The notes below the pieces were generated by a model. The model had not been told where the DNA came from, searched no databases, and saw nothing but the letters and a program-made list of their open reading frames with translations. Of a stretch of DNA of 41,798 nt, positions 1,723 through 4,163 are shown piece after piece. Numbering within the stretch: position 1 is the stretch's first letter; each line of letters opens with the position of its first letter. This stretch comes from Candidatus Omnitrophota bacterium (GTDB lineage Bacteria > Omnitrophota > Gorgyraeia > Zapsychrales > Zapsychraceae), in contig JAKQAH010000035.1 in the NCBI GenBank assembly GCA_029568545.1, forward strand, positions 1 through 41,798. The letters run 5' to 3'. A program made the position numbers and the translations under genes.

Positions 1723-3444
1723 ATGACCGGCATGACAAAAATAATTAGATCAAAAGAAAAGAAACGATTCGTGATCTACACCCGGTGCTCGACCGACGAT
1801 CAGGCGCAGGGCGATTTCACGACACTGGACGCGCAAGCGCATCACTGCAAAAACATGCTCGATGCGTTCGGCTATGAACTTGGAGAAATAGGAAAGAACG
1901 GAATAGTCAACGATGACGGCTATTCCGGAAAAGATTTGAACCGGCCGGGAATACAGCTGATCCTTGAGAACGTAAGGCAAAAGAAGAAAATTGACGGCAT
2001 AATTTTCTTCCGGCTCGACCGGCTCACGCGCAATACGCGCGACCTCTATGCCCTCATCGATTTATTCCGCGAAAAAGAAGTAGATTTTATTTCGGTAAGA
2101 GAAAACCTCGACAGCTCCACCGCGATCGGCCGCGTGGTTATAGGAATACTCGGCATCCTCTCCGCGTTCGAACGCGAGCTGACCGGCGAACGCGTGAAAG
2201 CCTCCGCGATCGCCCGCGTACGCCAAGGCAAATGGGTCGGCGGTTTCTTGGCGCACGGTTATAAACTGGAAAAAGACGGCGAACGCCTGCCAAACGGCAG
2301 ACAACCTCACAAAGTTGTTCTGGATCCGGAACTCGCGCCCAAACTCAGGATTATCTGGGAAATGGCGGCCAACAACAAATCGCTCATGGAGATCGGCCAA
2401 GAGCTGGAGCGGCAAGGCGTAAAAACCTGCCGCGGCAAAGTCTGGCGCAAACAGACATTGTCATCCGTCATCAAAAACCCTTTTTATAAAGGGTACATCC
2501 TCTACGCCAATGAACTTCACAAAGGAAATCACGAAGCGATGATCGAACCCGCGATCTGGGAGAAGGCCAATAGAATCGTCAAAGCCAAACTACCCGGCCA
2601 TGGATTCAGCAGAAGACCAAAAACATATAATTATTTATTGAGCGGACTGCTCAAGTGCGGGAAATGCGGAAGCCACCTGATATCGGCCTCCAACAAGGGG
2701 CGGGATGGAAAGAAGTTTCATTACTATATCTGCGGCAGGTCGAAACAAAAACTCGGATGCAATGAACTGGGCATCCCGGCCCCGGTCTTTGACCGGGCCC
2801 TGATCGGATACTTCCGGAAAGCCTCCCAGAACCGGGATATCATCATCAAAGGCATCGGCGATGCCATGCGCGAAGCCCAGCTCATGGCCGGGCGCATCGA
2901 CACCATGATCGCAGAAACCGAAGCCAAACTCAACGATTGCCAGCACGAAGCCAAGACCCTGCTGGATCTGGCCATGACCGGCACCGTAACGCAAGGCCCA
3001 GCTTATAAAAACAAGATGTCGGAAATAGATAACCAAATAATAATGCTCGAGGACAAGCTGACCAAACTTCGGTCACAAAAGTCGGCCAACGACATGACGG
3101 CCAACTCGGCCAATTACCTCCACGAAACCCTGCAGTTCGCCTTGGAATACCTCGACAAAGCCCCTGCGGATGCCCAGAAAAGCCTCATATTCGCCCTTAT
3201 AAAAGAGATTACGATCCATAGCGACGTAATTGACCTGCGGATGTACTTGGGCGATCCTGAACAAACCCTGCAGGCCGATATCCACGACTGCGAACACAGC
3301 CAAACCGCCGTAAAAAACAAAAACCCCGTTCCGGAATTACTCCGAAACGGGGCTGATGTTAACGATCAAGCGCTTGTTGCGCATGGTCGTCCAAAATGGC
3401 TCCCCCGCGAGGACTCGAACCTCGGACCCAGTGGTTACACTTGA
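1723..3444 (+). CDS. Large serine recombinase (integrase)
   Basis: Catalytic YTRCST, DDGYSG, RLDRLTR, SAFERELTGER; recombinase domain; Zn ribbon CGKCG..YYIC; coiled coil. Confidence 0.95.
   Translation: MTGMTKIIRSKEKKRFVIYTRCSTDDQAQGDFTTLDAQAHHCKNMLDAFGYELGEIGKNGIVNDDGYSGKDLNRPGIQLILENVRQKKKIDGIIFFRLDRLTRNTRDLYALIDLFREKEVDFISVRENLDSSTAIGRVVIGILGILSAFERELTGERVKASAIARVRQGKWVGGFLAHGYKLEKDGERLPNGRQPHKVVLDPELAPKLRIIWEMAANNKSLMEIGQELERQGVKTCRGKVWRKQTLSSVIKNPFYKGYILYANELHKGNHEAMIEPAIWEKANRIVKAKLPGHGFSRRPKTYNYLLSGLLKCGKCGSHLISASNKGRDGKKFHYYICGRSKQKLGCNELGIPAPVFDRALIGYFRKASQNRDIIIKGIGDAMREAQLMAGRIDTMIAETEAKLNDCQHEAKTLLDLAMTGTVTQGPAYKNKMSEIDNQIIMLEDKLTKLRSQKSANDMTANSANYLHETLQFALEYLDKAPADAQKSLIFALIKEITIHSDVIDLRMYLGDPEQTLQADIHDCEHSQTAVKNKNPVPELLRNGADVNDQALVAHGRPKWLPREDSNLGPSGYT
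3312..3352 (-). terminator. Intrinsic terminator for the tRNA-Asn transcript, inside the integrase ORF
   Basis: Minus strand CCCCGTTTCGGA-GTAAT-TCCGGAACGGGG followed by TTTTTGTTTTTT, about 45 nt past the tRNA CCA. Confidence 0.75.
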
Positions 3445-3972
3445 CCCGCTATTCCTAACGGAAGTGGACTTTCTCTTCACCGTCGGCTTAACGTTACGGT
3501 GGCAGGTGTAAAGTCTCTGCACGTTCCCTGAACACTTAGGATCAGGGCTTCGCTCAGGATTACCCGCCGGTTTCCCGGTTTGGGCTTCCCTGAATTAGCC
3601 TGCTGTTTCAACCGGCGTTTCCGCCGGAAGCTGCGTCTGAGCATGAATTTCACGATGACAATTGGCACAAACAAGAAGACATTTATCGATCTCTTCTCGT
3701 ACCTTAGTCCAACTTCGAGTATAACCTTTACTCGAAACACTGAAATCCTTTTGATCAGGATCTCGGTGATGGAACTCTAAGGCTTCGATACAGCGGTCAT
3801 AACCACAAATCTGGCATCGACCACCCTTATATTCAACTGCTTTCTGTCTCATTTTCTTACGTCTTTTATGGACAGCAGCAATTAAATATTGCCGGCGATC
3901 TTTGTATGTCCGCGTATCTTTTCTTGCCATTGCCCTCATCCATTTGCTCGTTCCGCCTTCGGCGGAACTCTC
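3438..3972 (-). ncRNA. Group I intron (IC3-like), 535 nt, between tRNA positions 35 and 36
   Basis: 5' exon ends in U and intron ends in G. P AATTCAGGGAA (3596-3586), Q AATCCTGAGC (3561-3552), R GCAGAGACT (3520-3512), S AAGAGAAAGTCC (3477-3466). IGS GCAGCT (3634-3629) pairs with exon GGCTGT including a U.G pair. P2 CCGGCG-GAAA-CGCCGG; P9 CCGTTA-GGAA-TAGCGG. Confidence 0.93.
3595..3939 (-). CDS. Intron-encoded HNH endonuclease (putative homing endonuclease)
   Basis: CQICG..LEFHH..CANCHREIH (two CxxC plus HNH), basic N-terminus; wholly inside the intron. Start at 3939 or 3930. Confidence 0.88.
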   Translation of the reverse strand: MRAMARKDTRTYKDRRQYLIAAVHKRRKKMRQKAVEYKGGRCQICGYDRCIEALEFHHRDPDQKDFSVSSKGYTRSWTKVREEIDKCLLVCANCHREIHAQTQLPAETPVETAG

Positions 3973-4030
3973 ACAGCCACTTGCTCTACCAGCTGAGCTA
4001 CAGGGGATTAAAATTTCGGAGAAATTTTAA

Positions 4031-4070
4031 TCCCCAGCACCCCTTCAAATAACTTGCTGGGTGCAGGGGA
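4031..4070 (-). repeat. tRNA-leader hairpin element (copy at tRNA-Asn)
   Basis: TCCCCTGCACCC-N15-GGGGTGCTGGGGA; same core as the units upstream of tRNA-Arg. Confidence 0.75.
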
Positions 4071-4135: not shown

Positions 4136-4163
4136 ATTATAATTAAAAATCTTCAAAAGTCAA
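4136..4163 (-). promoter_or_regulatory. Putative sigma-70 promoter of tRNA-Asn
   Basis: TTGACT-N16-TATAAT. Confidence 0.6.

Follow-up and report, generated by a model that had tools for sequence, protein, structure and literature searches.

A tRNA-Asn(GUU) gene of an Omnitrophota bacterium, very probably split within its anticodon by a group I intron with a predicted HNH homing endonuclease gene

Introduction

The classical group I introns of bacterial tRNA genes reside in tRNA-Leu(UAA) of cyanobacteria and plastids, in tRNA-Ile(CAU) of Azoarcus, in tRNA-Arg(CCU) and in tRNA-fMet. The tRNA-fMet intron of Synechocystis PCC 6803, as Bonocora and Shub are said to have described in 2001, encodes a homing endonuclease of its own, I-Ssp6803I, which is reportedly of the PD-(D/E)XK type. 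Here we analyse a related element on a contig of a Candidatus Omnitrophota bacterium (JAKQAH010000035.1, assembly GCA_029568545.1), whose full length of 41,798 nucleotides (nt) we refer to as the window. The element lies in a gene for tRNA-Asn(GUU), which a group I ribozyme with a gene for a predicted homing endonuclease of the HNH type very probably interrupts inside the anticodon, between U35 and U36.

[quoted passage not shown] Introns were mapped there with the Rfam model and a split call by ARAGORN, after which eight loop positions were tested; the classical bacterial tRNA introns are marked as subgroup IC3 in a database, and the settings named in the text are Leu.3Ug, Arg.5Ug, fMet.2Ug, Ile2.5Ug and Leu.3Cg (10.1101/2020.01.27.920355). 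'Asn' is not named in the running text of this preprint, in which the 17 new settings are listed in a table or figure only (10.1101/2020.01.27.920355). In Williams' nomenclature, the intron of the window is an 'Asn.4Ug' intron, located in tRNA-Asn after the fourth base of the anticodon loop, with U at position -1 and G at the omega position. As carrier records such as MGTS01 and MHGR01 were public before the January 2017 cut-off of the preprint, we infer that a tRNA-Asn setting is very likely among the 17 new ones.

In the literature that we searched for a bacterial tRNA-Asn group I intron, we found no text naming one. Within the portion available to us, PMC5733544 uses 'group I introns' for inserts of 22-49 nt that ARAGORN places in the tRNAs for Arg, Gly and Lys; the portions at hand of a 2014 review (PMC3984707) and of the tRNAscan-SE 2.0 paper (PMC8450103) present only the classical tRNAs, and 'Asn' is absent from PMC11915505. 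An earlier note on this DNA, made from the sequence alone, had mentioned a report of 35/36 introns in tRNA-Asn and tRNA-Asp of Patescibacteria, for which the same literature yielded no supporting text.

Results

A tRNA-Asn gene broken inside the anticodon

The minus-strand segment 4007..3397 of the window is a tRNA-Asn(GUU) gene whose two halves are separated between U35 and U36:

4007..3973, minus strand: 5' exon of tRNA-Asn, 35 nt, tRNA positions 1-35, ending in ...GGCTGT
3972..3438, minus strand: group I intron of 535 nt that starts with G+1 and ends with the omega-G at 3438
3437..3397, minus strand: 3' exon of tRNA-Asn, 41 nt, beginning with TAACC and ending with CCA

The 5' exon is composed of the acceptor strand TCCCCTG, the D arm, the anticodon-stem strand AGTGG and the loop bases C32, U33, G34 and U35; three related genomes (G007, G013, G034) have intronless tRNA-Asn genes whose 5' half matches it with 100% identity. 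The 3' exon continues with U36, A37 and A38, followed by CCACT, the variable loop, the T arm, the acceptor strand CGGGGGA, G73 and CCA; it recurs with 100% identity as the 3' half of intronless tRNA-Asn genes in four relatives (G019, G034, G036, G022). The split gene has a U1-A72 pair and G73, which is the pattern of tRNA-Asn, as in E. coli.

Taken by itself, the sequence of the window is ambiguous with regard to the exact junction. The exon ends in ...GGCT-GT and the intron in ...CAAG-TG; because GT/TG is thus repeated at both ends, a junction at 33/34, which would yield the anticodon UGU of a tRNA-Thr, also satisfies the rule of a U at -1 and a G at omega. We searched 40 related genomes at the DNA level for the exon halves. 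In 21 of them the halves are adjacent, with up to 100% identity and a contiguous CTGT-TAACC, and ARAGORN names all 21 genes tRNA-Asn(gtt). Another 14 contain an insert at the same tRNA site, ranging from 193 nt (G011) to 704 nt (G016), with or without an open reading frame (ORF). The remaining five gave no tRNA-Asn-like match: nothing was found in G001 and G031, and just a 28-nt match, taken to be another tRNA, in G006, G023 and G028. In every occupied copy of the 14 relatives the exon ends in GGCTGT, the intron in G, and the next exon starts with TAACCA; the introns of G024, G016, G014 and G038 end in ...GATCG, which makes the 33/34 reading impossible in these relatives. The junction is therefore placed at 35/36 by the intronless Asn(gtt) homologues, by the GATCG ends, by the U.G wobble that the internal guide forms at U35 (see below) and by U1-A72 together with G73. 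For the intron boundaries, we relied on the intronless alleles and on 78 other complete copies; ...CTGT before the intron, a G at its end and TAA(C/T)C after it are common to all 79 complete copies.

Neither ARAGORN in its default mode nor the tRNA model of Rfam finds a tRNA at 3397..4007. With these results, most of what the earlier note had read from the sequence is borne out: the split of tRNA-Asn(GUU) at 35/36, the coordinates 3397..4007, which are exact and belong to the minus strand, the U/G splice junctions, and its expectation that standard tRNA finders would miss the gene. Its location of the ribozyme core at 3438-3640 was also correct, as the guide starts at 3634, and the RF00028 match that it proposed as a check was obtained, as described next; the ORF within the intron was not mentioned in it.

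The ribozyme and its covariation support

The Rfam model RF00028 (Intron_gpI) matches 3688..3445 on the minus strand with 71.8 bits, compared to a gathering score of 50, and an E-value of 1.9e-16; the 1.41-Mb assembly contains no other group I match. At its start, this alignment mis-assigns ~50 model positions (P1/P2; 3688..3600), which fall into the ORF, the true P1 being formed with exon positions 3978..3973. The following elements make up the intron:

3968..3950, minus strand: 8-base-pair (bp) hairpin GUUCCGCC GAA GGCGGAAC at the 5' end of loop L1, right after the splice site
3939..3595, minus strand: predicted HNH homing endonuclease ORF, 114 codons plus stop, in loop L1
3634..3629, minus strand: internal guide sequence GCAGCU; its pairing with exon G30-U35 (GGCUGU) gives P1, in which a U35.G wobble marks the 5' splice site
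3627..3612, minus strand: P2 hairpin CCGGCG-GAAA-CGCCGG
3603..3445, minus strand: catalytic core, as folded by RNAalifold on 57 cores and by pair counts that include the P7 pseudoknot
3603..3599 with 3506..3502, minus strand: P3
3591..3588 with 3559..3556, minus strand: P4, with P5 and P6 situated between its strands
3517 and 3515..3512 with 3470..3466, minus strand: P7, invariant
3501..3497 with 3482..3478, minus strand: P8
3465..3463 with 3441..3439, minus strand: P9.0, 3 bp, covarying, preceding the omega-G at 3438
3462..3445, minus strand: P9

Loop L1 comprises the whole span between the 5' splice site and the guide, including both the 8-bp hairpin, which has similar counterparts at the same position in G002 and L116, and the ORF. 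The shortest copies of the intron dispense with most of this span: their guide lies a few bases past the 5' splice site and is directly followed by a GNRA-capped P2.

To evaluate the structure, we aligned 57 non-redundant cores from the guide to the first eight exon bases (484 columns); they were chosen from the 61 of the 79 complete copies in which the guide was placed by script, and filtered at 92% identity. RNAalifold recovered P2, P3, P4, P5, P6, P8 and P9, with compensatory changes in 32 of 41 pairs; for P2 alone these occur in 6/6 pairs, with 99.4% of cells paired. When the P7 pseudoknot and P9.0 were added, 96.6% of 2614 cells held standard pairs and 33 of 46 pairs showed changes on both sides. 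None of 500 shuffles reached any of the five measures, and sliding the partners by 1-3 columns lowered the paired fraction to 31.7-47.1%. P7 and P1 are invariant, which is consistent with the structure and uninformative as to covariation; altogether, 48 columns are invariant in all 57 cores, the window's copy included. The conservation of the core helices by covariation is thus strongly supported.

The guide core GCAGC is unchanged in 57/57 aligned cores and always located immediately 5' of P2; G014 and G038 have the guide variant GCAGCC. P1 consists of six base pairs in 77 of the 79 copies, while the two others, with the exon GACUGU, have a mismatch at -5. An anticodon stem GGACU/AAUCC with the exon end GACUGU is found in the tRNA-Asn genes of L038, L040, L212 and L213; in L038 and L040, the two that we inspected, the guide is still GCAGCU, leaving an A-C mismatch in P1.

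The ORF in loop L1

The last 14 codons of the ORF overlap with the guide, P2 and the 5' strand of P3, and its stop codon TAA (3597..3595) sits in the joining region J3/4. The product has the pattern CxxC...HH...CxNCH...H and matches 12 PHROG families, the best being phrog_2255 'HNH endonuclease' at an E-value of 5.5e-31, with eight further families so named; among solved structures in the PDB, it comes closest to the HNH domain of McrA (6ghc), in a weak match with an E-value of 0.0021. In an alignment of four copies with 62-76% identity, C42, C45, H57, H58, C91, N93, C94 and H99 are invariant. From its sequence, the ORF is predicted to encode a homing endonuclease of the HNH (His-Me finger) type.

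The ORF is intact in four genomes (G000, G002, G039, G024), among them the relatives G002, G039 and G024, whose ORFs occupy the same place and are 62-76% identical to that of the window. In G033 the frame is open and has no ATG, GTG or TTG start, in G016 it is broken by a frameshift, and from the introns of G003, G011, G032, G008, G014 and G038 it is gone. Three of the 14 occupied copies end at contig ends.

Distribution of the intron and its relatives

The HNH alignment was used to scan 185,579 species genomes, resulting in at least 560 confirmed loci, of which we examined the best 80. These 80 have 61-80% identity and, judged by their record titles, represent about a dozen phyla; the titles include Omnitrophota, Planctomycetia, Nitrospira, Elusimicrobia, Acidobacteriota, Blastocatellia, Pyrinomonadaceae, Clostridia, Bacteroidota, Melainabacteria, Binatia, Aerophobetes, Edwardsbacteria and others. 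All 80 loci lie in tRNA-Asn at 35/36, with ...CTGT before and G-TAA(C/T)C after; in one of them (L077) the contig ends just past the 3' splice site. Many of these genes come out of ARAGORN as Thr, Tyr or Pro because it slides the junction. The suggestion in the earlier note that the host, as a diderm, may extend the range of such introns is not supported, since the same intron with its HNH ORF is present in tRNA-Asn at every one of these loci and since, within the host phylum, no other site is used more often, as shown by the following sample.

A BLAST search with the core of the window's copy found relatives in 56 of 400 other genomes, assigned to the phylum by their record titles, which is a lower bound, as the known carrier G016 was missed. 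RF00028 had matches in 80 of 150 other genomes of the phylum, over the cut-off in 61 of them. We retrieved all 80 over-cut-off places outside the window's own genome and classified them by host gene:

tRNA-Asn 35/36: 34 of 80 places
tRNA-fMet 33/34: 27 of 80 places (among L162-L218); some introns of ~620-660 nt may hold ORFs
tRNA-Tyr(GUA) 35/36: 9 of 80 places
tRNA-Arg(UCU) 34/35: 2 of 80 places (L208, L209)
tRNA-Lys(UUU) 33/34: 1 of 80 places (L151)
Host gene not assigned: 7 of 80 places

In this 150-genome sample, tRNA-Asn 35/36 is the commonest group I intron site. RF00028 matches seven times in a 1.4-Mb genome of the same class (G113); several of these matches lie close together on a single contig (C14:26215-29652), in what looks like an rRNA operon or a tRNA array with several introns.

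Introns in tRNA-Tyr(GUA), likewise split at 35/36 (AGACTGT ... G, AAATCTG) and ORF-less, were seen in L127-L131, L138, L147-L150, L153, L155, L156 and L159. Six of them (L127-L131, L138) were retrieved by BLAST with the core of the window's Asn intron. In a tree computed quickly by maximum likelihood from 66 short introns (209 columns, unrooted, with support values only from the Shimodaira-Hasegawa-like approximate likelihood ratio test, SH-aLRT), the Tyr introns form one clade (95) and the Asn introns two (99 and 95); these three clades unite (90) and are separate from fMet (96). The window's copy falls into the first Asn clade (99), nearest to G003 and G011, and the Lys and Arg rows sit on long branches, so that their placement is unsure.

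Surroundings of the tRNA gene

Two signals flank the split gene:

4163..4136, minus strand: promoter-like site, TTGACT, 16 nt, TATAAT, ~130 nt upstream of the tRNA
3354..3312, minus strand: strong intrinsic terminator (also delimited as 3354..3322), with a stem of 15 bp and a run of T behind it, 43 nt past CCA

The promoter-like site is a consensus match only: it has 11 of 12 consensus positions, and the one such site in the region compares with a mean of 1.4 in shuffles. A 14-bp hairpin, GGGGAUUAAAAUUU / AAAUUUUAAUCCCC with the loop CUCCG, spans 4035..4003 on the minus strand, its 3' arm taking in the first five bases of the tRNA. As part of the primary transcript, it would be a competitor of the acceptor stem; it could be the recR terminator or a processing signal.

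A large serine recombinase ORF of 573 codons with Resolvase, Recombinase and Zn_ribbon_recom domains (1723..3444, plus strand) converges on the tRNA gene, its frame passing through the tRNA terminator and the 3' exon and reaching the last bases of the intron. It may belong to an integrated element beside tRNA-Asn. In the closest intron-bearing relative (G002), no such recombinase gene lies downstream of tRNA-Asn. When we checked whether the recombinase element uses the 3' end of the tRNA as its attachment site, the final 24 nt of the tRNA proved to occur only once in the whole assembly (with up to three mismatches), and the downstream flank is not shared with G002 or G033.

Discussion

We consider it highly probable that the pre-tRNA for Asn(GUU) is interrupted at 35/36 by a group I ribozyme that harbours an HNH homing gene; splicing, the endonuclease activity and its target are our predictions from sequence. 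The locus would be expressed as a stand-alone unit, in which the promoter-like site, exon 1, the intron, exon 2 and the terminator follow one another, to give a pre-tRNA-Asn(GUU). Pairing of the guide GCAGCU with exon G30-U35 would then form P1 with its U35.G wobble, and a free guanosine bound in P7 would attack after U35. The omega-G (3438), placed by P9.0, would next occupy the guanosine site, allowing the freed 3'-OH of U35 to attack before U36 and to restore the anticodon loop CUGUUAA; as the window's copy has no P10, exon alignment would rely on the body of the tRNA. The HNH product, in turn, would cut intronless tRNA-Asn genes, whose repair would copy the intron in, and homing of this kind would explain both the patchy occurrence in close relatives and the spread over phyla. 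Close relatives differ in having an empty site, an intact element, a decaying ORF or an intron that lacks the ORF, which is what a homing cycle would predict.

Several observations weigh against this interpretation. Both sides of P1 are fixed across the 57 cores, so that this helix shows no covariation. A search for P10 in the window's copy, where the guide is preceded by the two bases AC, was negative; it can be drawn in the relatives G014 and G038, as GGUUA/UAACC or GUUA/UAAC. The Pfam HNH model gives the ORF product 16.7 bits, under its cut-off of 21.4, a search of NCBIfam with the ORF had no match, and there is no clear ribosome-binding site before the first ATG. Among 24 public RNA sequencing runs, compared as contigs only, none contained more than 0.10 of the sampled words; in RNA reads, moreover, intronless relatives with identical exons would mimic a spliced junction. 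Finally, the host assembly (1.41 Mb, 196 contigs) is 78% complete, and its unassembled part may hold a second tRNA-Asn gene, of which there is none among the 32 tRNAs listed, a point that the earlier note had asked to be looked at.

The alternative that survives best, although we regard it as unlikely, is that the intron is competent for splicing and immobile in this genome, with an HNH protein that is inactive or acts as a maturase-like helper. It is favoured by the predicted nature of the endonuclease activity, by the frequent decay of the ORF, as in G033 and G016, and by the weak context of the window's start codon. However, residues of the catalytic type and the zinc-binding cysteines are invariant in the four copies compared, despite their divergence, and the level of HNH identity across many phyla suggests recent transfer by an active enzyme.

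Far less probable is a dead insertion, that is, a non-splicing intron in a pseudogene, with the working tRNA-Asn encoded in the unassembled 22% of the genome. The fragmented state of the assembly would accommodate this, as would the absence of P10 and the status of splicing as a prediction. Against it stand the intact state of every conserved core position, exons identical to functional-looking intronless genes, an unbroken HNH frame and the situation in other carriers. Using an intronless Omnitrophota tRNA-Asn as query, we searched four genomes with an HNH-bearing split gene by BLAST rather than by a full tRNA scan: the closed chromosomes of two Omnitrophota (CP070807.1, CP070684.1) and of one member of the Pyrinomonadaceae, and an assembly from the Blastocatellia. 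No other tRNA-Asn was found in the four; nine of the 11 matched places, which we inspected, are Lys, Met, Arg, Thr and Ala tRNAs, and the remaining two cover query positions 32-63 only. This search argues that the split gene is the only source of tRNA-Asn in those genomes; in the closed Omnitrophota chromosomes it would therefore have to yield a working tRNA.

The reading of the gene as a tRNA-Thr(UGU) split at 33/34, with an intron at 3974..3440, has next to no chance of being right: it is what ARAGORN returns when introns are allowed (tRNA-Thr(tgt), 535-nt intron), its junction likewise has the required U and G, and no tRNA-Thr(UGU) gene is among the 32 tRNAs of the assembly, but we rejected it because the intronless homologues are Asn(gtt) in 21/21 cases and the relatives' ...GATCG ends cannot yield UGU, and also because U33 would face an A in P1 rather than the wobble G, the U1-A72/G73 pattern fits tRNA-Asn, and the calls of Tyr or Pro for other family members reveal that the tool slides the junction.

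The tRNA-Tyr introns also deserve attention. They resemble the window's intron in their loop position, in the exon end CUGU and in their cores, and differ from it in the tRNA affected and in their size, the nine classified ones being ORF-less and 195-247 nt long, whereas the window's intron has 535 nt and an ORF. The tree fits a single 35/36 lineage that would have changed its tRNA at least once. It seems quite possible, and we propose it tentatively, that the tRNA-Asn(GUU) and tRNA-Tyr(GUA) introns of the phylum are one lineage that moved between tRNA species; its P1 would need only C32-U33-G34-U35, which is common to all tRNAs with GUN anticodons (the queuosine family). If so, the family is to be expected in tRNA-Asp and tRNA-His as well, and the tRNA-specific HNH enzyme would restrict it to Asn in most genomes. 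The occurrence of related introns at the same loop position in tRNA-Tyr thus merits a proper survey.

The main consequence concerns genome annotation. Default finders report no tRNA-Asn for the host genome, and ARAGORN with introns allowed turns the gene into a Thr tRNA here and into Thr, Tyr or Pro tRNAs in other members of the family; genomes of Omnitrophota and of several other phyla will therefore seem to lack an essential tRNA or to possess spurious ones. The element itself is widespread and, in its host phylum, commonplace: one more case of a very successful selfish element.

How, then, does it relate to the systems described before? With the settings in Williams' survey it shares its nature as a group I intron, its placement within the anticodon loop of tRNA genes in bacteria, the U at -1, the omega-G and the fact that standard finders overlook it. 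Like the tRNA-fMet intron of Synechocystis, it carries a homing endonuclease gene of its own, whose product would target the intronless tRNA gene in its anticodon region; the two differ in tRNA and position, and in the enzyme, which is predicted to be HNH here and is reportedly PD-(D/E)XK there. With the classical introns in general, it has in common a ribozyme of ~190-250 nt with P1-P9, the location in the anticodon loop, a P1 that depends on the exon, a GNRA-capped P2 and the same J3/4, J6/7-P7 and J8/7 strings matched by the Rfam model. Judged from this shared Rfam alignment, it would resemble subgroup IC3. The classical introns, however, interrupt other tRNAs and, as the earlier note had maintained, do so at other positions of the loop, which by Williams' position numbers are 34/35, 36/37 and 33/34 (10.1101/2020.01.27.920355), compared to 35/36 in the tRNA-Asn gene analysed here.

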